From a virus, in IMG/VR virus record IMGVR_UViG_3300010371_000028, positions 1 through 64,000 of that record: 64,000 nucleotides of DNA, one strand, 5' to 3'. The position numbers were made by a program, and so were the translations under genes. Below are positions 52,697-63,621 of the stretch, one piece after another (position 1 is the first letter of the stretch; every line of letters starts with the position of its first letter). Under the pieces are notes generated by a model, which had not been told where the DNA came from, searched no databases, and saw only the letters and a program-made list of their open reading frames with translations.

Positions 52697-52728
52697 GAGG
52701 GTTCCTACCGTTCGGGTTCGTTCGCTAG

Positions 52729-52762
52729 CCGCGTCCGGCCGGGGCTCCCCGGCCGGACGCGG
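52729..52762. terminator. 16-bp perfect hairpin just after the capsid gene
   Basis: ccgcgtccggccgggg ct ccccggccggacgcgg. Confidence 0.7.
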
Positions 52763-52777
52763 GTGCCGCATGGGCGA

Positions 52778-54583
52778 TCAGCTGTAGGTGCCGCCGTTGC
52801 CGACGGTGGTCTTCTGGATGCCCTGCAGCAGGCCGTTGTACTGGACCGCCGGGGAGAACAGTGCCCCGTACATGAACAGGCTGTAGCGGAAGGTCACGTC
52901 CACGACGGGCCACGAGATGGACAGGTAGTCCTGGACCATCACGTTCTCCCACACGTTGCCGACGTTCGTCCACGGCTGCGGGAGCTTGTAGGACAGCGCC
53001 ATGGCGGTGCCCTGCGGGATGTACGGGTGAACCCGGAGGTTCATCACCTTGCGCGTCACCGGGTTGGTGTACTCGCTGACGGCGACGCCGCCGCGCACAC
53101 CCCCGACCTCGCTCTGGTTGATGAAGAACCGGTAGTTGTTCGGGTTGGCCTGGTTGTTCTGGTTCGCGAGCGAACCGGCCAGCCGGGTCAGGTCGCCGCC
53201 CTCGGCCCACAGGTCGTCCGGGTCGGCGAAGATGCCGTTCGGGCCGTCCCACATGCCGGTGAGCATGTTGTTGATGGCGTTCTCCGACAGGATGTCGCCG
53301 ACGGAGTCGTTGACGTACGAGCCCTGGTAGCCGGACGGGTAGACGGCGGAACCGCCGGACGCCGAGTGGCCGGAGATCGTCGGGATGAAACCCTCGTAGT
53401 CCGTGGTCGCCGAGGTGCCGGTGTCGGCGGTCGGCGGGGTCGCAGTCCCGGTCGGCAGCGCGCCCTGCAGGGTGAAGCGGGTCGCGCCGACGGCCGAGGC
53501 CATCAGGTGGAAGCCGCTGTTGGCCGGGGCGGCCGTGCCGGTGCCGACGTAGACGTTGTAGGCGAGCGCGCCGTTGGACGGGCTGATCAGCACGTCGACC
53601 ACGTTGCCAGCCGACCAGGCGACGGACGCGCTGGAGGAGCCCGCGGTCTCGCCGTAGTAGTTCAGCGCCGTGACGATCACGTACACGTTCGTGGTGACGC
53701 CGGACAGCGCCGTCTCGCCGCTGCCCGCGGCGCGAGCCGTGAGACCGGGCGTTCCCGGGGCCGACAAAGCGATCGAAGTCGCGCCGATCATGGCGCGCTC
53801 CTCGAGGACCATCATCTCCTGCAGCAGCACCAGCGACGCGAGCCCCGCGGCGTCGTCGAACCCCTGACCGGCGAACTGCGCCAGCCAGGAAACCGCCTCG
53901 GTCAGGCCGAAGAACTTGTACGGGACATTGACGTCCACGGCGGTCTGCGACCCGGAGGCGGGCAGCTGGTTGGGCCAGTTGTTGCCCGCGATACCGCCGC
54001 CGGCAGGCAGCTCCGGGATCGAGATGCGGTTGGAGGTCACGCCGAGCTGGCCCGGCAGCGCGCCGGAGATCGAGGTCATGACCTTCGCCCGGTGCACGGT
54101 GCCCTGGCCGGGCACACGCGGGATCAGGTTCCGCAGCGGCGAGTAGACCGGGTAGATCAGCTGCGTCGGCGCCGTCAGGTCGAACGGCACCAGGCCGGTC
54201 GCGTTCGGCGAAGTCAGCGTGATGGACTTGCCCAGTTGCGCGGACAGCTGGTCGTTCAGCTGCGACACGAACTGGTTCATCGCGTAGACCTGCGGGCTGT
54301 TCTGCATCGCCATCGACAGGGCGTTGCCGAACGCCGGCGACAGCGACTTCAGGACGGTCGCCGGGTCGGACAGGCCCTTGCGGATGGCCGACTTGAGCAG
54401 GTGCTCGGCGGCGTAGGCCTGGTCGTCCTCGCTGGCGCCGACACGGCGGCCCTTGACGAGGGCGGGGATGCGGCGGGAGATCGCGTCTCCGTAGCCGCCG
54501 TTGCGAACCTCGCCGAGAACCGACTTCGCAATGACGTCGGTGTTCGCCTCGCTCGAGATCTGCTCGATGGTTGCGCGCGTTAT
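52778..54583 (-). CDS. Major capsid protein, about 601 aa, inferred ATA start
   Basis: LVPFDL.AP...SPLRNLIPRV.GQG...YK.FGL...; the frame stays open and codon-adapted for 90 codons upstream of the ORF-track ATG (54313), up to AAGGAG-tggcat-ATA. Confidence 0.85.
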   Translation of the reverse strand: MTRATIEQISSEANTDVIAKSVLGEVRNGGYGDAISRRIPALVKGRRVGASEDDQAYAAEHLLKSAIRKGLSDPATVLKSLSPAFGNALSMAMQNSPQVYAMNQFVSQLNDQLSAQLGKSITLTSPNATGLVPFDLTAPTQLIYPVYSPLRNLIPRVPGQGTVHRAKVMTSISGALPGQLGVTSNRISIPELPAGGGIAGNNWPNQLPASGSQTAVDVNVPYKFFGLTEAVSWLAQFAGQGFDDAAGLASLVLLQEMMVLEERAMIGATSIALSAPGTPGLTARAAGSGETALSGVTTNVYVIVTALNYYGETAGSSSASVAWSAGNVVDVLISPSNGALAYNVYVGTGTAAPANSGFHLMASAVGATRFTLQGALPTGTATPPTADTGTSATTDYEGFIPTISGHSASGGSAVYPSGYQGSYVNDSVGDILSENAINNMLTGMWDGPNGIFADPDDLWAEGGDLTRLAGSLANQNNQANPNNYRFFINQSEVGGVRGGVAVSEYTNPVTRKVMNLRVHPYIPQGTAMALSYKLPQPWTNVGNVWENVMVQDYLSISWPVVDVTFRYSLFMYGALFSPAVQYNGLLQGIQKTTVGNGGTYS

Positions 54584-54614
54584 ATGCCACTCCTTTCCGG
54601 GGTGGTCAGGTGCT

Positions 54615-56963
54615 CTAGCTGAGCAGCTTGACCGCCAGCTCGCGGCCGGCAGTCTTCATCAGTTCATCGAGGGCGGGAAGGGCGATCCCCTGGTCGGGGT
54701 CCTTCGCCTGCTTGACGAGCCTCACGAGCCGCTCCGTACGCGCAGCCTCGTCCCCGCCCGCGGGGACCTCCTGGCCGTCGTGCTTCGCCTTGGTGAGACT
54801 GGCCCCGGACCGCGGCGCCATCTGCGCCGGGTCGGGGGACGATTCGAACTCGGCGATCCTCGCCTCGAGGTCGCCGATGGTCTTGGTGAGGTCACCGAAC
54901 TGGTCGGCGACGAGGTCCCGGATCGTGGACTTCAACATCTCCGGGTCGATGAGGGGCCCCGCGGTGGCAGTGGCGGCCGGCGCGGCGGCTTCCTGCGCGG
55001 GGTTCGCGGCGTTGGCCATCTCGGCCTCCTTCGTGACGTGCGGGGTGACGAGGGACGCGGCGTGCGCGGCGTCGACCGGGATCGGCGTGCTCGTCGCGTT
55101 GGTCTTGCCGAACTGCTGCGGGACGGGCGCGCTCGCGGCGGGAGAAACGCCCATCGCGCCGTGCGCGGACTCGCCCATGGCGCACACGCCCGGGTGCTGG
55201 CCGGCGATGTAGTCGTGCATCGCGGCGAGGACGCCCTTGGCCTGCTCGCGGGCCGCGGTCGTGTAGTAGGTGCGCGCGTCCTTGGCCGCCGACCCGGGGG
55301 ACGCGGCTTCGCGCCCGGCCGTGATCAGAGGGCGCTTGAAGTCGTCGGGGTTCGGAACGTGGCTGGCGAGGGGGATGCGCGGCTTCTGGCCGGAGCCCGC
55401 CGTCTGGTTGGCGCGCCCGGCGGACACATACGGCCGTTCGAACTGGCCCGGGGTGATGCTGCCGGGCTTCACGTGCACGTCCGGGTAGTAGTCGGCGAAC
55501 GCCTTGCGGAGATCCGTCATGGCTTCGGCCATCAGGCCCGAGTCGGCGGCCTTCAGGACCGCGGCGAGGCTGTAGGCGTGCGAGAGGCTGGGCAGCGCCA
55601 TGGCCGCGCTGGCGGAGTCGCCGGCGGTCAACGCCGCGGAGATGGAGGCTGCGAACACGTCGGGGTCGGCGATGTGCGCGAGGCCCTTCGATACGGCGGG
55701 GTGAGCGGCGATCACGTCGTCGGCGCGGTATGCGGCGCAGGTGGCGTCGTGCAGCCGGGCCAGGTGGTAGGCGGCCGGTCCCGCAGCGCTCTTGGTGGCG
55801 TGCGCGGCCGGCGAGTCGGTCGCCTCGTCCTTGTCCTGGGCCGCAGCCGCCGTCTGCACGTCCTCGCGCACGTTCTCGAGCGCCTGGGCGACCATCTGGT
55901 CGGCCGGGTGAGTGGTCGCGTCGGGGTCCTTGGCCTGGGCGGCGAGCGCGGCGTCAGCGTCCTGCTCAAGCCGGTCGATGGCGCGTTCGACGTCCGTGTC
56001 GGCGGTAGACGGCTTGGCTGCCTTCTTCATGGCGGTGCCGCACTGGGCGCAGAACTTGTCGCTCTTGCGCATCGGGGCGTCGCATTCCGAGCAGTTGCCG
56101 GCCTTCTGCGCCTGCGCCTTCTCCGCCGAGTCGTCGTCGGAGTCGCCCTCGTCCTCGGCGTCGTCGGGCTCGCTGCCGTCGTCGCCCTCGAACGGCTTGG
56201 CCGCGCCCTTGAACGGCGGCTTGCCCTTCTCAATCTCGTCGCCGGCCTTGGCCGCAGCCGGCTCGCCTGTGGGCTCGGCGTCCTTCTTCGCGTCGTCGTC
56301 CTTCACGTCTTCGCCCTTCCACGAGTCGGGGATCTTCGCTTCGAATTCGGGCCCCTTGCGGCGGGCGATAGCCATGGCACGCTGCTTGATCTTCTCGGGG
56401 TCGCCCTTGATGTCGTGGTTCAGGTTCGGGGCGATGTCCGCGACGTCTTTCGGGGTGACGATCGGGAATGCGCGGTGCTCCGGGTCGGCGAAGTCCTCAG
56501 TCGGGATCTTGTCGCGGTCCACTCCGCCGCCGACGTTCCGATCGAAGTCCCGCTTGGCGACCTCGCGGACCGAAGGCTCTGCGGTGAGTTGCCGCTTGAG
56601 CGCGTTCAGCTTCGCCAGGTCGCGCGGGGAGAACGACACGGACACGTCCGCCGGGAGCTCCACCGTCACCGTCTCGGCCTCGATCGCCTTCGTGGCGCCC
56701 TGCGCGGGCGCTGGCGCGTCCTGGCGGTCCGGTTCGGTCATGACGGCGGCAATATGCCCCTCCTGGGTTTCTGCGGCGGCCACGTTGGCCGCCGGATTGA
56801 TCTCGGCAACGTCAAGGGCCTTCATCATGAGAATGGGGAATCCGTTTGCCGGCGTACCGACACCATCCACGCGAGTCGGGTCGAACTTCTCCAACTCGGT
56901 GATCTTCTCCAGGTCATCGCCGGCCTCCCCCTGGTTTCCGACCCCTGGAAACGCTGCGGCCAT
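54615..56963 (-). CDS. Large capsid scaffold/maturation-associated protein
   Basis: AGGAGG-N6-ATG; RVDGVGTPANGFPILMMK, a DUF6582-like FADPEHRAFPI segment, CSEC...FCAQCG ribbon, acidic/Ala-rich coils. Confidence 0.75.
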   Translation of the reverse strand: MAAAFPGVGNQGEAGDDLEKITELEKFDPTRVDGVGTPANGFPILMMKALDVAEINPAANVAAAETQEGHIAAVMTEPDRQDAPAPAQGATKAIEAETVTVELPADVSVSFSPRDLAKLNALKRQLTAEPSVREVAKRDFDRNVGGGVDRDKIPTEDFADPEHRAFPIVTPKDVADIAPNLNHDIKGDPEKIKQRAMAIARRKGPEFEAKIPDSWKGEDVKDDDAKKDAEPTGEPAAAKAGDEIEKGKPPFKGAAKPFEGDDGSEPDDAEDEGDSDDDSAEKAQAQKAGNCSECDAPMRKSDKFCAQCGTAMKKAAKPSTADTDVERAIDRLEQDADAALAAQAKDPDATTHPADQMVAQALENVREDVQTAAAAQDKDEATDSPAAHATKSAAGPAAYHLARLHDATCAAYRADDVIAAHPAVSKGLAHIADPDVFAASISAALTAGDSASAAMALPSLSHAYSLAAVLKAADSGLMAEAMTDLRKAFADYYPDVHVKPGSITPGQFERPYVSAGRANQTAGSGQKPRIPLASHVPNPDDFKRPLITAGREAASPGSAAKDARTYYTTAAREQAKGVLAAMHDYIAGQHPGVCAMGESAHGAMGVSPAASAPVPQQFGKTNATSTPIPVDAAHAASLVTPHVTKEAEMANAANPAQEAAAPAATATAGPLIDPEMLKSTIRDLVADQFGDLTKTIGDLEARIAEFESSPDPAQMAPRSGASLTKAKHDGQEVPAGGDEAARTERLVRLVKQAKDPDQGIALPALDELMKTAGRELAVKLLS

Positions 56964-57031
56964 CGTGAACCTCCTGGCGATCATTACCCTGAAACAGGGC
57001 GTGGTGGAGTTCGAATTCGGTAGAATCTGAC

Positions 57032-58516
57032 GTGGCTACCAATGCAGAGAAATCGGCGTTAGCCGAACGGGCTTTCCTGGCACGCCTCGCCGAACTTGGC
57101 GTCATGCCGGACTACGAAAAGTGGGAGGGCACGGGGCGCCCCCACAAGGCAATCTGCCGTGTGGGCCACGAGTGCTATCCGTACCCCTCCGCGATCCGCA
57201 AAGGAATCGGGCCGTGCAGAGCCTGCGCCGGGCAGGACCCGCGCATGGCAGAGGCGGCGTTCCGGAACCGCCTCGCCGAACTGGGAGCCGCCCCCGTCTA
57301 CGACACCTGGCTCGGTGCGCGCAAAGGCCATGCCGTGATCTGCAAGAACGGGCACGCGTGCCATCCGACGCCCGATGCGATCCGCGCAGGAAACGGTCCC
57401 TGCAACACCTGCGCCGGCACGAACAGTGCGGCGGCCGAACGGAACTACAAGGTCCGGCTCGCTGAACTCGGAGCCGCGCCCGCCTGGACCGCCTGGATCG
57501 GCGCCGCGAAGCCTCACAAGGTCATGTGCCCGCAAGGGCACGAATGCTCCCCGATCCCTTCGGGCGTCATGGGAGGCAAAGGCTTATGTCGGACATGCGC
57601 CCGGCTCGACCCGCTGGTAGCCGAAGTCGCATTCCGACGGCGCCTCGACGAACTCGGCGTCGTCGCCGAATGGGCAACGTGGCGCGGCAATCACGCCAAG
57701 TACCAGGCAACCTGCGCTGCCGGGCACGAGTGCTGGCCGCGCCCTGACCACTTGCGGCGAGGCGACGGGCCCTGCCGCGCCTGTGGGAAGTGCGACCCCG
57801 TCGAGGCCGAGGCCCAGACCCGGCGTCGGCTGGAAGCATCCGGCTTCACGCCGGCTTGGGAACAGTGGGTCGGTGCAGGCCGCCCCCACAAAGTAGCCTG
57901 CCCGGCCGGACACGAGTTCCCCATGTACCCGTCCGCGCTGGCGCGGAGAGGGTGTACGTGCCCTCATTGCGCCGGCACGACTCCGGAAGCGATCGAGAGC
58001 GTCTTTAGGGATGCCGTCGTGAGGCAGGGCGCCACCCCAGCGTGGGGCAGTTGGCTAGGGAGCAGCCAGGGCCACAGGGTCATCTGCAAGAACGGGCATG
58101 TGGTCTACCCCAGGCCGAACGGTGTCGGGCAGGGGCGTGGCGTCTGCCGGTTCTGCAAGGGCCGGGCTTGGGACGTCTTCTACGTCGTGGTCAACGACGT
58201 GAAGCGCGAACTGAAATTCGGGATCACGAGCGGCGACCCCCGGGGGCGCCTTGCCGTCCACAGGAACCGCGGCTTCTCGCATGTGGCCCTGATCGCCGCG
58301 ACTCCGCTGGCCCTGAAGATCGAAACCGCGACGAAGAGAGCCCTCCGCGCCGCCGGACACCGGCCCGCCCACGGCAGGGAGTACTTCGGCCTTGACGCCC
58401 TGGAAGAAGTCTTACAGGTGGCGATCAGCTACGGACTCGAAGCCGGGATCAGTCGCGAAGACTGGCCAGGGCGTCCTGGGACGGCTCTCGCCTTACGGCC
58501 GAGCCTTGCATGCTGA
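57032..58516 (+). CDS. Six tandem zinc-finger repeats plus GIY-YIG/T5orf172-like nuclease domain (free-standing homing-endonuclease-like)
   Basis: Six 62-aa C-x3-H-x15-C-x2-C repeats; C-terminal FYVV...KFGITS..PRGRL..H...IE...GREYF. Confidence 0.85.
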   Translation: MATNAEKSALAERAFLARLAELGVMPDYEKWEGTGRPHKAICRVGHECYPYPSAIRKGIGPCRACAGQDPRMAEAAFRNRLAELGAAPVYDTWLGARKGHAVICKNGHACHPTPDAIRAGNGPCNTCAGTNSAAAERNYKVRLAELGAAPAWTAWIGAAKPHKVMCPQGHECSPIPSGVMGGKGLCRTCARLDPLVAEVAFRRRLDELGVVAEWATWRGNHAKYQATCAAGHECWPRPDHLRRGDGPCRACGKCDPVEAEAQTRRRLEASGFTPAWEQWVGAGRPHKVACPAGHEFPMYPSALARRGCTCPHCAGTTPEAIESVFRDAVVRQGATPAWGSWLGSSQGHRVICKNGHVVYPRPNGVGQGRGVCRFCKGRAWDVFYVVVNDVKRELKFGITSGDPRGRLAVHRNRGFSHVALIAATPLALKIETATKRALRAAGHRPAHGREYFGLDALEEVLQVAISYGLEAGISREDWPGRPGTALALRPSLAC

Positions 58517-58973
58517 CCCCGCGGATCTTGCCGCTCTTGATGAGTTCCCAGGTCTCCGGGGTCCACTGGATCCCCAGGAGCCAGTCCCCGGACTTGATCG
58601 TCTGCGTTGTGCCGTCGGCTGCGGTCAAGTGCCAGTCGGGGCCGCGATAGACATACGATTCCACAACGTTGCCGCTGCCATCCGTGCCCTGCTGATGCCA
58701 CAGCCCCACCGAGCGCGACTTCAGCATGTAGGACCACGCCGCATCCTCGACCGCCTGCGGGCCTGCGAAGTCGCGGAAGCCGTCCGCGGCCACGCCGGCA
58801 TCCGGCTTGTTCGCTGGATACGCGACGTGCAGGGTGAAGCGGCGATCAGGCTGCGACTTCACGACGCGGGCGGCGATGCCCATGCCGTCCCATACGTCAG
58901 GCTGCGCGTCCTTGACGACTTCGCCGCCGTCGATGACCACGCGCTCGGTGCCGTCTTCGATAGTGACGCGCAG
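58449..58973 (-). CDS. XkdF-like putative prohead protease; inferred CTG start
   Basis: HVAYPA..PD..D...VEDAAWSYM...GLWH...VVESYV...GDWLLG...WELIKSGKIRGVSMQG; AGGAG-ctgcat-CTG. Confidence 0.8.
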   Translation of the reverse strand: MRVTIEDGTERVVIDGGEVVKDAQPDVWDGMGIAARVVKSQPDRRFTLHVAYPANKPDAGVAADGFRDFAGPQAVEDAAWSYMLKSRSVGLWHQQGTDGSGNVVESYVYRGPDWHLTAADGTTQTIKSGDWLLGIQWTPETWELIKSGKIRGVSMQGSAVRREPSQDALASLRD

Positions 58974-58982
58974 ATGCAGCTC

Positions 58983-59588
58983 CTACCTGGTTTCGAGCCG
59001 GGTCAGCAGTTCGGTCCAGTCCGCGAAGGCGCGGACGTTCGGGTACTGCCGCCAGGATTGAGGGGTCCACGGGCGTATCGGCGTCCACACGTCGACACCG
59101 GGCCGGGCGATGGTGAGCCACTTCGCGGGGTCATCGTCGATCAGGACGGCCGGATTCATGGGCCCTCGGGCGGCGAGCGCCATCGTTTTCGATGTGGGAC
59201 CGTCGAGGATCTGCCCGTCGCGCGGCACCGCGCTGGCGTCGAGCCACTTTTCAGTGGCGGGCGCGGTGGACGCCGGGCGGTCCGAGGCGATGAGGACCCG
59301 ATGTCCGGAAGCGCGCACGGTTCGCAGCGCCGCGATGGCTTCGCGGTCCGGGGCGAGGTTGAGGATCCACGGGTCGCGTGCGGATTGGGCGAGCAGCCAT
59401 CTCTTCTGGTCTGGCTCGAACAGGTTCACGTACGGGTAGGCGCGCATGTCCGAGACAAGATGCGAGGAGCCGAAGCGCGCGTTGACTGCGGTGCAGCCGG
59501 CTTCGACCTCCTGCGCGAGTACGTTGTCGATGTCGCACACCACGAGCGGTCGTGTCGCCTCGGCCGCGAAAACGGCACCGAGATCCAC
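58983..59588 (-). CDS. HAD-superfamily 5'(3')-nucleotidase-like phosphatase
   Basis: VVCDIDNVLA, IASDRP, VLIDDDP, FADWTEL; GGAGG SD before GTG. Confidence 0.8.
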   Translation of the reverse strand: MDLGAVFAAEATRPLVVCDIDNVLAQEVEAGCTAVNARFGSSHLVSDMRAYPYVNLFEPDQKRWLLAQSARDPWILNLAPDREAIAALRTVRASGHRVLIASDRPASTAPATEKWLDASAVPRDGQILDGPTSKTMALAARGPMNPAVLIDDDPAKWLTIARPGVDVWTPIRPWTPQSWRQYPNVRAFADWTELLTRLETR

Positions 59589-59599
59589 GCGGCCTCCCG

Positions 59600-60076
59600 T
59601 CAACGGCGGTCGTAGTCGTGCAGGTGCAGCGAGCGCTTGTGCACGTGCGGCCGATAGCCCAGGGTCCGCAGTAGCTGGGACAGGCGGGTATCGAGCCGGT
59701 GCCAGTCCTTGGCCGGGGACCCGTCGCCATCTACATCACCGAGCCGGCCCATGAGACCGGGATGGCGAGTTTTGAGCCTGCCCGCCAGTTTCACGCAGCC
59801 GAGCCCGTCCTGGAGCCACGTGTGCTCGATCCGGTACGGGCTTGTACACCACGGCCGGGCGCAGGCCCCCATGGCGGCGGTAACACCGTCGGCCGGAAGC
59901 ATGTCGTGCTCGATGAGGATCAGGTCACCTGGGCGGTCCCATTCGGCGGCGAGGAGGCGCCAGTAGGCTTCGACGTCTGCGTCGAGTTGGCAGATTCTCG
60001 CACCCTCGGCCTGCGCCCACCTGCGGGTCGCTTCGTGCAGCATGCCGGGTGCTGCCGCAACGATGGCCACCGTCAC
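59600..60076 (-). CDS. Small GT-A-like glycosyltransferase
   Basis: YWRLL..EW..PGDLILIEHDMLP...GLGCVKL...DW.RLD..L; DxD-like EHD motif. Confidence 0.6.
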   Translation of the reverse strand: MTVAIVAAAPGMLHEATRRWAQAEGARICQLDADVEAYWRLLAAEWDRPGDLILIEHDMLPADGVTAAMGACARPWCTSPYRIEHTWLQDGLGCVKLAGRLKTRHPGLMGRLGDVDGDGSPAKDWHRLDTRLSQLLRTLGYRPHVHKRSLHLHDYDRR

Positions 60077-63000
60077 ACCATGTCCGATGCGCCGAGCCGG
60101 TACCTGACCACCTCGCTGTCGCCGCGATGGACGGACAGGTGCGTGAAGGTCACGGGCAGCGCCGGCAGCGGATCCGGCAGGCTATCACCAGCATCGACGT
60201 AGGCCCTGGTGACGTGCGGATGCCAATCCGCGTGCTCGCTGGCCGAGAGGTCCGCTAGGTTCGCTCGTAGTTGCTCGGCGCCGGGGAGAGTGACTCCGGC
60301 CCATACGACGGTCTTGCCGTCGCTGGAGTCGGACGGTTCGAAGGTGCCGAGTCCCGAGACGATTCCCGTCAGCGGTCCCGGCGCGGACGCGGCGGCTCGT
60401 GCGGCGCGTGCGCACGCGAGCGCGAACGCGTCGTCGTCGACGTCAGGCCCGAGATATGCGACGGTCACATGGAAGTCGGCGACTCCGCCGGGGACCGGCT
60501 CGATCAGCGCTTCAGGCAGATCCAGCGAGATCATTCCCGATTGCGCGTTAAGACTGTATCCGCGCGCTGCTTTCACCGTGTCCGAGGAGTCCTCGGCGGG
60601 GACGAAACGGCAGGAGCAGCGGCAGTTCGGGCCGCCGAGGCACACGTTTCCTCCGAACCCGCCGTCCCCGGGCCAGCCGGGCAGCGTCTTGAGTGTGAAC
60701 GTCTTGCCCGCCCGGTCGACGCAGGGCCCGCAGTGGTCCTTCGCGTCCCCGAGTTCCCACACGATCGTGTAGGTGGGGTGCGCGTCCATCACGGTTCGGC
60801 CGTAAGCCTGGTTGTACGCCTTGTACAGGGACGCGGCGTACTGGGCGAGACGCGCCCCGATCGCGGCGAGCGACAGTCCCGCGACGACGTCCTGGATCAG
60901 CCCCATGAGGTAGCCGCGCTGCCGTTCGGCTTGCTCGCCGGCATCGTCGTCGAGGTCGTCCTCGTCGATGGGCGGAGTGTCCTCGTAGTCTCCGGACGCG
61001 TCCGTCGTGCCGGCTGCCATCGCCTTCCGGTACCCGGCGGCCATCGCCCGCACTCCGCCGTCGACGGCGTGCGGAAGGGACAGGCCCGCGTTCTTGTGGT
61101 CGCGCACCAGTTGTCCGAGGTGCGCCGCCACGGCTGCGGCAGCCGCTTCCAGGTGTCGTTCGCGCCGTTCCTGCCGCTGCTTGGCGTCGGTGGCGTCCTT
61201 CGCGGCCTTCACTGCGGCGGGCACGCCCTGCGGGAGCATCCGAGCGGCAGCTTCCACGGCTTCGACGGGAAGCGCTTCGGGTCGGAACCGGGCAAGGTCG
61301 CGGCCCTTGCGCAGGTAGCGGCCGAGGATCTCAAGCTCCGCCTTCTGTGCGGCTTGTTCGGCGGCCTGCGCCTCCGCGTCTGCTGCGCCTGCGCTGCCGG
61401 GGGTGTCCGGCAGTCTTTGCGCCGCCTCGTGCGCCGGTGTCGTCAGCGAGTCGTCCGAGACCTGCGCCGACGCGTCCGGTACGGCGCCGGGCACGCCCGG
61501 GGCCTGGGGCTGTTCGCTGGCGATCGCCGAGAGCGGTACCGGGCCGGTGGCGGTGAACACGAGCGGCACCGAGGTCTCGGGCAGCCCGAACGGCGTCCAC
61601 CCGAGTTCGCCGCGGAACTCGTCGATCGTCTGCACGCCGCCCTGGGTCAACTGCACGCCCTGGTCGATCAGCGACTGCCGGTTCTTGCCGCGGTCCGTCA
61701 GGCCCCAGGACCATTCCATGTCCTTCTGCCCGAAGACTTCCCGGATCACGAAGTCGAAGATGACGGTCTTGAGTGCCGCGCACACCGGTTCAACGCGGGT
61801 CTGCGACCCCTTGTCCGAGTTGATCTGGGAGAGTTCCTTGGATTCGGACGGCGACTGCACTGCGGAGACCCGCGGGGTGACGCCGAGGTCCATCGGCGTC
61901 AGGCCGAACGGCATCGCCACCTGGGAGATGATCCACTCATCGAACTGGTCGGCGAGCGCGACCGGCTTCTGCGCCTCGGCTTTCGACCCGGGCGGCAGCA
62001 CCACGATCCGGTGCTTCGCCCCGATGTCCCCGGCCATCGCGTTCAGCGCATCCTGCAACTGCCGGATCTGCTGCGGGGTGGAGATGTCCGGGCCCGGCGT
62101 AATGAACTGCCCGGGAATGGAGCCGTCGGTGAAGTAGTCGTTCTGGAACTGCTGACGCGCCAGACCGATCGAGATCGGGAGGAGCGCCTTCTCCACGAGC
62201 GACTGCCCGTACGGGGTGAACGCGCGCGGCGTCTCCCTCATGTAGATCAGCTGGTCGGCGCGGAAGTCCGCGACGGGCTCGCTGAGTTCTTCGAGGTCGT
62301 CCCCGTTGATGACCGACAGGAGGTCGACGCGGGGTACGCCCCACACGAACTGCTGGTAGCCCACGGCGGACGGCCTCGGCGTCTCGCCGAGCGTCGAGAT
62401 CAGCGGCCTGACGGTGGACCCGTCGATGAGGTTGAGCGCGGCGAGGTCGGAGCCGAACGGGCCGGCGCCCTTCTTGCGCGGCGGCACCAGGTGGATCGCG
62501 ACGGCGTCGAGGACGAACCGGTCTTCGAGCAGCGCGCTCAGCCACGCCCCGAGGGTCGGATACTTGGCGCGGTCGGAGTCGGGGTGGCTGAAGAAGTCGA
62601 GGACGATCGCGCGCCGCTTCTCCCAGTCGGCCCGCAGACTCTCGTCCCCGGCCATGGCGTGCTCGGCCTCAGGCGTGGGAATCACGTCGGGTTCGAGACC
62701 GATGATCTCCGCCTTGCGCTTGTCGACGCAGGAGCGGGCAACCGAGTACATGTCGGCGACGGCGCGCAGCGTCGCGAACGGCGCGAGCTTGAGTCCTTCG
62801 CTGCCCGGCTGCCCGACGGGGAGGTTGTAGCCGGGCTCGTACTGGTATCGGCGGACGTCGGGCCGGTGGGTGTCCTCGCGCGGCGGGTCGATCGGCATGG
62901 CCGTGACTGGCGCCATGGGGCCGAACGCGCCGTTGAGGAACACGGGGGCGGGCCGGGGCAGCGGCGAATACGGCACGGAGGCGCTGTAGCCCTGCCCGTA

Positions 63001-63111
63001 TGACGCGACCAGCGGCGAGAGTCCGCCCTGGCCGGTGCTGCCGCTACTGCCGGCGTTGTTCGCTGCGGCGAGTACGGCTGCCGCGATCGCGTTCCCTTTC
63101 GGCACGGCCAC
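60073..63111 (-). CDS. Portal protein fused to MuF-like and 2H-phosphoesterase domains
   Basis: Portal core (LIDGSTVRP, YGQSLVE, YFTDGSIPG), then HCGPC...GGPNCRC, then HVTVAY and HPHVTRAY. Confidence 0.9.
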   Translation of the reverse strand: MAVPKGNAIAAAVLAAANNAGSSGSTGQGGLSPLVASYGQGYSASVPYSPLPRPAPVFLNGAFGPMAPVTAMPIDPPREDTHRPDVRRYQYEPGYNLPVGQPGSEGLKLAPFATLRAVADMYSVARSCVDKRKAEIIGLEPDVIPTPEAEHAMAGDESLRADWEKRRAIVLDFFSHPDSDRAKYPTLGAWLSALLEDRFVLDAVAIHLVPPRKKGAGPFGSDLAALNLIDGSTVRPLISTLGETPRPSAVGYQQFVWGVPRVDLLSVINGDDLEELSEPVADFRADQLIYMRETPRAFTPYGQSLVEKALLPISIGLARQQFQNDYFTDGSIPGQFITPGPDISTPQQIRQLQDALNAMAGDIGAKHRIVVLPPGSKAEAQKPVALADQFDEWIISQVAMPFGLTPMDLGVTPRVSAVQSPSESKELSQINSDKGSQTRVEPVCAALKTVIFDFVIREVFGQKDMEWSWGLTDRGKNRQSLIDQGVQLTQGGVQTIDEFRGELGWTPFGLPETSVPLVFTATGPVPLSAIASEQPQAPGVPGAVPDASAQVSDDSLTTPAHEAAQRLPDTPGSAGAADAEAQAAEQAAQKAELEILGRYLRKGRDLARFRPEALPVEAVEAAARMLPQGVPAAVKAAKDATDAKQRQERRERHLEAAAAAVAAHLGQLVRDHKNAGLSLPHAVDGGVRAMAAGYRKAMAAGTTDASGDYEDTPPIDEDDLDDDAGEQAERQRGYLMGLIQDVVAGLSLAAIGARLAQYAASLYKAYNQAYGRTVMDAHPTYTIVWELGDAKDHCGPCVDRAGKTFTLKTLPGWPGDGGFGGNVCLGGPNCRCSCRFVPAEDSSDTVKAARGYSLNAQSGMISLDLPEALIEPVPGGVADFHVTVAYLGPDVDDDAFALACARAARAAASAPGPLTGIVSGLGTFEPSDSSDGKTVVWAGVTLPGAEQLRANLADLSASEHADWHPHVTRAYVDAGDSLPDPLPALPVTFTHLSVHRGDSEVVRYRLGASDMV

Positions 63112-63168: not shown

Positions 63169-63621
63169 TTACGCGGCGGCCGGTTCGTCCTGCCATGCCG
63201 CGGCTTCTTCGAGGTCTTCACGCCAGAGCACCTGGTCTTCGGGCCACTCGCCGTGCCGGAAGTAGGTGACCCGCTGCACTCGCCCGTCAGGGTGGTATTC
63301 GAGTTCGGAGACCGCCGGGCATTTGCGCGAATGAAGGCCGAGGCAGTGCGGGCAGCGCTGCTTGTCGAACACGGTGGTCTTCAACCCGGCGACGCCTGGG
63401 AAGGGCGGGGGCTCGTCGACCACCTGCAGGAGTTGGCGGGCAAGAGCAGGGTCGAGGCGCAGCGCGGCCCGGGCCGAGCCTCGCCGCCGTTCGTCGCGGC
63501 GCGCTATGTAGGCGTTCTTGGCGCGCCTGGCGTGGTGGCGGAGCCGGTGGCCGTGGCGGCCCAGCTTGTCGTAGAGGCTGCCCGGCCAGCCGAGCGGGGC
63601 GCGGATCACGTCGGTGAACGT
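63169..63621 (-). CDS. Zinc-binding hypothetical protein; inferred ACG start
   Basis: CPHCLGLHSRKCP; GAGGAGG-N5-ACG in frame, whereas the first GTG is 17 nt from the SD. Confidence 0.6.
   Translation of the reverse strand, partial: TFTDVIRAPLGWPGSLYDKLGRHGHRLRHHARRAKNAYIARRDERRRGSARAALRLDPALARQLLQVVDEPPPFPGVAGLKTTVFDKQRCPHCLGLHSRKCPAVSELEYHPDGRVQRVTYFRHGEWPEDQVLWREDLEEAAAWQDEPAAA

Follow-up and report, generated by a model that had tools for sequence, protein, structure and literature searches.

The first 64,000 nucleotides of the linear, 132,777-bp IMG/VR virus record IMGVR_UViG_3300010371_000028 (89% complete by CheckV), here called the window, contain a gene whose single product joins a phage portal core, a MuF-like domain, and a C-terminal 2H phosphoesterase domain. 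As modelled, the C-terminal domain is a genuine 2H fold with an intact HxT/HxT tetrad, and profile and structural comparisons make it LigT/ThpR-like and place it outside the Acb1 family. The fusion is proposed to be a virion-associated counter-defence phosphodiesterase, a reading with a probability of about 0.5. Within that reading, small nucleotide signals are somewhat more likely targets than RNA ends. The gene and its parts are as follows.

60073..63111, minus strand: whole portal-MuF-2H gene, 1012 codons plus TGA.
62866..63111, minus strand: N-terminal extension, residues 1-82, predicted to be disordered (predicted local distance difference test score, pLDDT, about 30-40 in the full-length model).
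61492..62865, minus strand: portal core, residues ~83-540, recognized by PF04860, phrog_2662, Foldseek, and the terminase gene upstream.
60901..61491, minus strand: disordered linker (~529-579) followed by a long helical region (580-737) that leads into the MuF-like domain, from the full-length model.
60601..60900, minus strand: MuF-like domain, residues 738-837, with C794-x2-C797 and C830-x-C832.
60535..60600, minus strand: variable disordered junction, residues 838-859, with pLDDT below 50 at 841-853 and the lowest conservation (0.36).
60076..60534, minus strand: LigT/ThpR-like 2H phosphoesterase domain, residues 860-1012, assigned by PF13563, an AlphaFold2 model, and structural alignment.
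60463..60471, minus strand: first catalytic motif, H881-V-T883, invariant in 28 homologues and 39 IMG/VR open reading frames (ORFs).
60208..60216, minus strand: second catalytic motif, H966-V-T968, invariant in the family alignment.

The 2H domain alone scores 36 bits against 2_5_RNA_ligase2 (PF13563), above the cut-off of 27, and its AlphaFold2 model has a pLDDT of 92.4. Its catalytic residues lie within HVTVAY (residues 881-886, 60454-60471) and HPHVTRAY (residues 964-971, 60199-60222). An earlier note, made from the DNA letters without database searches, had named these two motifs and two more in the MuF-like region; all four occur essentially where it placed them, and its assignment of the former pair to a true 2H fold is supported by the PF13563 score and the confident model. 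Three further motifs, RSGMISLDLP, DLSASEH, and LSVHRG, are specific to this 2H family and invariant across it. Structural alignment of the 2H model with solved structures gives the following scores.

Deinococcus cyclic phosphodiesterase (CPDase; drCPDase): Z 14.9.
T. thermophilus TT0787: Z 14.7.
E. coli LigT: Z 13.9, 2.5 A over 144 residues, 23-24% identity.
Usb1: Z 13.4-13.6, about 10% sequence identity.
AKAP18: Z 11.4.
Rotavirus VP3: Z 11.
Acb1: Z 10.2.

In total, 67 solved chains match the model at Z>=8, and the matches listed, down to Z 5.7, are 2H enzymes or 2H-like domains. The domain is regarded as LigT-like and not as Acb1 because the Acb1 family profile PF23474 has no match in it at E<=10 (the T4 57B control scores 202.7 bits), because hhalign of the 2H family against T4 57B gives only 19.8% and covers the second HxT motif alone, and because Acb1 aligns at a Z of 10.2, whereas LigT-type enzymes reach 14-15. 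The label "Acb1/LigT-like" in the earlier note is therefore half right: the LigT/ThpR part stands and the Acb1 part does not. The profile and structure comparison with Acb1, LigT, and AKAP7 that the note recommended finds LigT-type enzymes nearest and Acb1 more distant, with AKAP18 between them. Against the LigT/ThpR equivalog TIGR02258 the domain scores 22.1 bits, under the cut-off of 65.7, and when a sequence profile of the 2H family is run against the PDB, only a weak match comes back, 2fyh (E 0.26).

The closest cellular counterparts are E. coli ThpR (LigT) and Deinococcus CPDase, which align over 144-152 residues at Z 13.9-14.9 and 20-24% identity and share the HxT/HxT tetrad. They differ in being stand-alone cellular enzymes, and the RSGMISLDLP and LSVHRG motifs are the phage family's own. 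Acb1 (T4 57B; Hobbs et al. 2022, PMC9117128) resembles the window's domain as a phage-encoded, compact 2H fold of about 150 residues with an HxT/HxT tetrad. It differs in being a free protein, and its Z against the window's 2H domain is below those of the LigT, Usb1, AKAP18, and VP3 groups.

The portal core is matched by Pfam Phage_portal (PF04860) at residues 280-501, where its 39.1 bits just equal the gathering score, and by the PHROG portal family phrog_2662 at residues 83-673 with E 3e-41. Relatives of the protein match PF04860 with scores down to E 1e-30. In the full-length AlphaFold model the pLDDT of the portal part is only moderate, and Foldseek finds the portals of phage 812, lambda, HK97, a gene transfer agent, and T5 (E 3e-7 to 4e-4, probability 1.00). 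The pLDDT is about 30 at residues 529-579 and 85-90 at residues 580-780, which are all helical. Two predicted disordered linkers (~529-579 and 841-853) part the portal, the helical/MuF region, and the 2H domain.

The helical MuF-like stretch spans residues ~580-837 overall and carries a CxxC...CxC knuckle, with HCGPC at residues 793-797 (60721-60735) and GGPNCRCSC at residues 826-834 (60610-60636). PF04233 (MuF/SPP1 gp7) has no match at E<=10 in residues 560-860 or 700-860, NCBIfam gives no direct detection of the region, and a hidden Markov model built from the MuF segments of relatives scores it at just 5 bits. When a 32-member family profile is compared by hhalign with the PF04233-positive segments of relatives, the two align at 94.2% (E 1.1e-7, 92 columns). 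The W...D..C..C...P.CRC signature falls in register, with Gly-Pro (GGPNCRC) in place of the His-Pro (HPxCRC) that precedes CRC in canonical MuF. The domain has no Pfam match of its own, yet this alignment upholds the earlier description of it as MuF-like.

The ORF at 60073-63111 on the minus strand translates into 1012 residues without a stop. The G+C content at third codon positions (GC3) is highest in the fusion frame over the full ORF length and dips only in an Ala-rich linker. Translation probably starts at GTG 63105, because a Shine-Dalgarno (SD) sequence, AGGCGGGGG, lies 6 nt upstream and this start fits the N-termini of homologues. A 24,255-nt Logan contig from a soil metagenome run covers 59900-61500, including the MuF-2H junction, with 0 differences; since the run probably stems from the source sample itself, the contig represents a second assembly, not a second sample. 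Full-length, co-linear homologues are present on other contigs (P0002, 85%; P0010, 77%). The portal-MuF-2H fusion is not an artefact, because a second assembler gives the same fusion and many independent metagenomic phages join portal and 2H in one ORF. The uninterrupted frame, its GC3, and the domain matches bear out the single 1012-codon reading of the earlier note, and the assembly artefact that it had considered is answered by the second assembly and by the ORFs of independent phages.

An internal start at the near-invariant Met860, giving a free 2H domain, was considered and rejected. The 30 nt upstream of this codon contain no SD-like purine run in about 75 loci, the upstream synonymous codons vary (CGC/CGG/CGT, TCG/TCC/AGC, GGC/GGG), and Trp replaces Met in 2 homologues.

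The 2H domain belongs to an abundant family. A profile-free exhaustive search with it returns 1047 clusters at E<=1e-3 and 124 at E<=1e-30, counted as representatives at 50% identity. The matching proteins range from about 130 to about 2900 residues and carry the domain in any position. A scan of genome contigs for the 2H module gave 41 pattern matches, none of which was confirmed, so the scan speaks neither for nor against prophage copies in cultured genomes. Co-domains were counted in 39 ORFs drawn evenly from 77 IMG/VR loci that carry the module. Phage_portal and 2H share one ORF in 23 of these 39; other domains found beside 2H are NUDIX (8), Arr-ms (5), Phage_Mu_F (5), and GNAT or ADP-ribosyltransferase (ART) domains in a few. 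The Arr-ms domains, which are rifampin ADP-ribosyltransferase-like, reach a best E of 3.6e-31, and DUF7178 occurs in 2 of the 39 ORFs.

The domain orders of these relatives include portal-2H-MuF and portal-MuF-2H-NUDIX, and the portal is N-terminal in every one of 78 proteins with portal and 2H matches. The closest relatives (P0003-P0013), whose portal-MuF part is 70-78% identical, have an insert of about 450 residues between MuF and 2H, in which NUDIX occurs along with DGHHR, a conserved motif that is characteristic of ParB/sulfiredoxin-like domains. None of this insert is present in the window's protein, and NUDIX is found nowhere in the record. BLAST identified none of the neighbouring ORFs as split-off pieces of the inserts of relatives. 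Giant polyvalent proteins of 1275-2887 aa (P0171, P0173, P0174, P0175, P0207, and locus L082) contain one or two 2H copies. Their domain boundaries bear a recurring (Q/R)-R-E-A-(A/S/T) motif, with five sites in P0174 for example, which is absent from the window's protein; these sites may be polyprotein processing sites.

Across portal lineages, median identity to the window's protein is 63% for the 2H domain and 33% for the portal, and within the phage's own lineage the 2H domain is not the more similar part (0.56 versus 0.67 for the portal). Because 2H is much more similar than the portal across lineages, the comparison suggests that the 2H module is exchanged between portal lineages. This identity pattern is consistent with an enzymatic cassette that is self-contained and whose substrate, a small molecule or a nucleic acid, is conserved.

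The sequence is 69% G+C and derives from a high-GC tailed soil phage of at least 133 kb, whose host is probably an actinomycete. The fusion sits in a late head module made up of the terminase, the portal fusion, and an XkdF protease. The terminase large subunit lies 1.3 kb upstream, past the end of the window (ORF 64443-65954; Terminase_6N, 42.5 bits at 65046-65678, minus strand). The nearest genes within the window are the following.

63169..63609, minus strand: small Cys-rich ORF (CPHC...KCP) between the genes for terminase and portal, with homologues upstream in 4 related loci.
59600..60076, minus strand: phage-specific, GT-A-like ORF of 158 aa, with no Pfam or PHROG match.
58983..59603, minus strand: haloacid dehalogenase (HAD)-type phosphatase/nucleotidase-like gene with a DIDNV motif (phrog_415, E 5e-8; NT5C, E 3e-4, below cut-off).
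58449..58940, minus strand: XkdF-type prohead serine protease (PF14550, E 5.8e-15), a candidate processing enzyme.

The earlier note had called the protease adjacent; it lies two genes downstream of the fusion. At least 24 of the 77 related loci have a homologue of this protease downstream of the 2H gene. The small Cys-rich ORF is in the frame of the portal ORF, with one TAA and 19 codons between the two. The GTG of the 158-aa ORF overlaps the TGA of the fusion (GTGA), which suggests translational coupling. This ORF falls in phage-only clusters with hundreds of members, and its GT-A glycosyltransferase-like fold (TM 0.75-0.77 to Anp1/GT2 clusters) is a lead only; it may be a virion-glycosylation gene. 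The HAD-type gene, for which the phrog_415 annotation is "polynucleotide kinase," was rejected as a dedicated partner of the 2H domain, with a homologue in just 3 of the 77 related loci.

Farther along the head module, the opposite strand carries a 494-aa ORF (57032-58516, plus strand), placed between the gene for the XkdF protease and the minus-strand head gene that follows. Pfam has no match to it, its ESM Atlas neighbours (scores 0.95-0.96) are proteins with DUF723, CapR, T5orf172, or treble-clef zinc-finger domains, and it looks like a homing-endonuclease-like selfish insertion. In a 789-aa ORF (54615-56984, minus strand), an N-terminal VDGVGTPANGFPILMMK-type motif is accompanied by a low-complexity acidic stretch and, at residues ~298-320, a zinc ribbon. 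Nine related loci have a homologue of this ORF downstream of their 2H gene, and it may be a scaffold-type protein. Four minus-strand ORFs (58055-58372, 57584-57967, 57059-57541, and 52725-54590) were dropped for their wrong-frame appearance, being rich in Arg, Gly, and Pro and poor in GC3.

Fusions of this kind have been described before. Iyer et al. 2017 (PMC5512222) reported phage polyvalent proteins in which a 2H domain is joined to MuF or portal, and noted that such 2H versions never accompany RNA ligases and that the architectures parallel PBECR RNase fusions on MuF or portal. The same authors proposed first a Usb1-like RNase and otherwise the breakdown of host-defence 2'-5' or cyclic nucleotides. 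Iyer et al. 2022 (PMC9503650) took the fusions to suggest head packaging and injection against SMODS, cyclic-mononucleotide, and CRISPR signalling, with the alternative that such enzymes counter immunity aimed at packaging components. The window's fusion belongs to this class, having an enzymatic effector fused to MuF or portal among late packaging genes, and it shares the domain combination, the late-gene context, and the predicted role. Those reports give architectures only; the LigT-like subfamily, its spread in high-GC soil phages, and its frequent internal position are worked out here. The architecture and the idea of injected counter-defence were thus already published in 2017 and 2022, and what is new is the LigT-like affinity of 2H, the contrast between 63% and 33% identity, and the frequent internal 2H position. 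Of the interpretation first offered for this DNA, the architecture, the 2H fold, the tetrad, and the place in the head module by the terminase have held; the Acb1 likeness and the protease adjacency have not, and the idea itself is not new.

Several cultured actinophages carry comparable proteins. Gp3 of Arthrobacter phages Sonali and Mufasa8 ("portal and MuF-like fusion protein") has a portal about 26% identical over residues 112-424. Sonali gp3 likewise combines portal, enzymatic domain, and MuF in one ORF that adjoins the terminase, but its enzyme is NUDIX and its order is portal-NUDIX-MuF, whereas the window's is portal-MuF-2H. The nearest 2H domain of a cultured phage, about 33% identical, is in gp18 of Arthrobacter phages Salgado and Laroye ("RNA ligase"; phrog_14859). 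It is also located in the head module, behind a portal gene and a MuF-sized gene, but is fused to the XkdF protease and not to portal or MuF. Gp16 of Gordonia phage EdmundFerry places 2H between the MuF and capsid genes. The nearest structures in BFVD belong to actinophage proteins as long as about 1100 residues, labelled "RNA ligase" or "capsid morphogenesis." Portal-MuF fusions of Microbacterium clusters EA and EB and MuF-VIP2 ART fusions were reported as predicted virion components by Jacobs-Sera et al. 2020 (PMC7302621); these differ from the window's protein in that 2H was not reported there. In the literature searched, no experimental test of any portal/MuF-2H fusion was found, and a search for Acb1 linked with MuF gave irrelevant matches only. 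A 2025 preprint reports that a virion ejection protein can block CBASS, an antiphage defence that signals with cyclic oligonucleotides, by a different mechanism.

In the proposed mechanism, the portal part would form a dodecamer at the unique vertex, with up to 12 MuF-2H extensions facing the capsid interior. The prohead protease would free these extensions at the disordered linkers, or they would stay tethered. Freed copies would then exit with the DNA at infection, as T4 Alt and proteins of the SPP1 gp7/MuF type do. Once inside the cell, the 2H domain would hydrolyse a phosphodiester or 2',3'-cyclic phosphate substrate without a metal. The likeliest substrates would be immune signals made of small (oligo)nucleotides, or the cyclic-phosphate intermediates of such signals, and the next likeliest would be RNA ends left by metal-independent defence RNases. 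Packaging, release by the protease, and delivery of 2H are inferred, and the substrate is a prediction.

A set of observations weighs against a delivered anti-signalling enzyme. The closest solved folds are RNA 2',3'-cyclic phosphodiesterases and not the anti-CBASS enzyme Acb1, and the domain fails the sequence tests of Acb1 membership. In 44 of the 78 portal-2H proteins the 2H domain is internal, with more than 150 residues after it; since MuF or other domains then follow, it is not simply C-terminal MuF cargo. The high cross-lineage identity of 2H is partly a selection effect, because the relatives were gathered with a query that included 2H. If the chain were left uncleaved, a portal-tethered enzyme could not enter the host.

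A more ambitious version of this proposal is tentative and somewhat unlikely. It holds that the LigT-like 2H domain is a mobile, self-contained cassette among unrelated portal lineages of actinomycete phages. As many as 12 ready-made copies would sit at the portal inside the capsid and come free at the disordered linkers, and from the first minute of infection they would break down immune signals, whether cyclic oligonucleotides or other phosphodiesters. The domain would then be a functional counterpart of Acb1, delivered by the virion and with an independent origin in the LigT clade.

The best surviving alternative, itself unlikely, is that the domain heals RNA ends. A ThpR/LigT-type 2',3'-cyclic phosphodiesterase would act on tRNAs or mRNAs cut by anticodon nucleases or metal-independent RNases, and would ready the ends for a host ligase or just remove cyclic ends. 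The best structural matches are enzymes of this activity (Z 13.9-14.9), and some relatives join the same 2H domain to P-loop kinase-type domains (Zeta_toxin/AAA_33; P0040, P0046, and P0064). This pairing of kinase and 2H resembles the kinase-CPDase healing module of fungal tRNA ligase. The HAD phosphatase gene also lies two genes downstream of the fusion, although its rarity beside 2H genes (3 of 77 loci) counts against a healing pathway, as does the TIGR02258 score of 22 bits. Searches of the 132.8-kb record, itself 89% complete, turned up no RNA ligase (PF09414), RtcB, or KptA, which tells against healing and agrees with the observation of Iyer et al. 2017 (PMC5512222) that such 2H domains never occur beside ligases. 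A search of the record with PF09511 (T4 Rnl1) was blank, but its controls gave no signal, so it is uninformative.

More unlikely again is that the 2H domain acts in the producing cell and is not injected. Portal fusion would tie its synthesis to late expression, the enzyme would destroy nucleotide signals raised when portal, terminase, or capsid is sensed, and copies in the virion would be incidental. The gene does sit in the late module, a tethered enzyme would require no release, and immunity against packaging components was raised by Iyer et al. 2022 (PMC9503650). Portal-limited stoichiometry is poor for a cytoplasmic enzyme, however, and the recurrent linkage of 2H to head-interior proteins (portal and MuF) and to other injected-type domains (ART and NUDIX) points to packaging.

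It is very unlikely that the domain works as an RNase of the Usb1 type or a 2'-5' phosphodiesterase and attacks, instead of healing, host or CRISPR RNAs. Usb1 structures match almost as well as LigT (Z 13.4-13.6 versus 13.9), and Iyer et al. 2017 (PMC5512222) drew the parallel with PBECR RNase fusions, but sequence identity is only about 10%, no RNA-binding accessory domain is present, and fold similarity is unable to separate such activities. The chance that the fusion is really two or three genes joined by assembly or gene calling is negligible: the contig is metagenomic and the Pfam portal score sits exactly at its threshold, but the frame is continuous with uniform GC3, the Logan contig agrees, though probably from the same sample, and co-linear homologues and one-ORF fusions recur elsewhere.

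Taken as a sequence finding alone, the portal-MuF-2H protein is a further example of a described class. Should its 2H domain reach the host along with the DNA and break down immune nucleotides, phages would be seen to pre-load an anti-signalling enzyme in the virion without reliance on early transcription. Injected anti-signalling enzymes have been predicted since 2017, and the literature searched contains no test of the prediction. One biochemical characterisation would annotate many soil-phage genes now mislabelled "RNA ligase," because the subfamily is abundant, most sampled copies are fused to a portal, and the catalytic core is sharply conserved.

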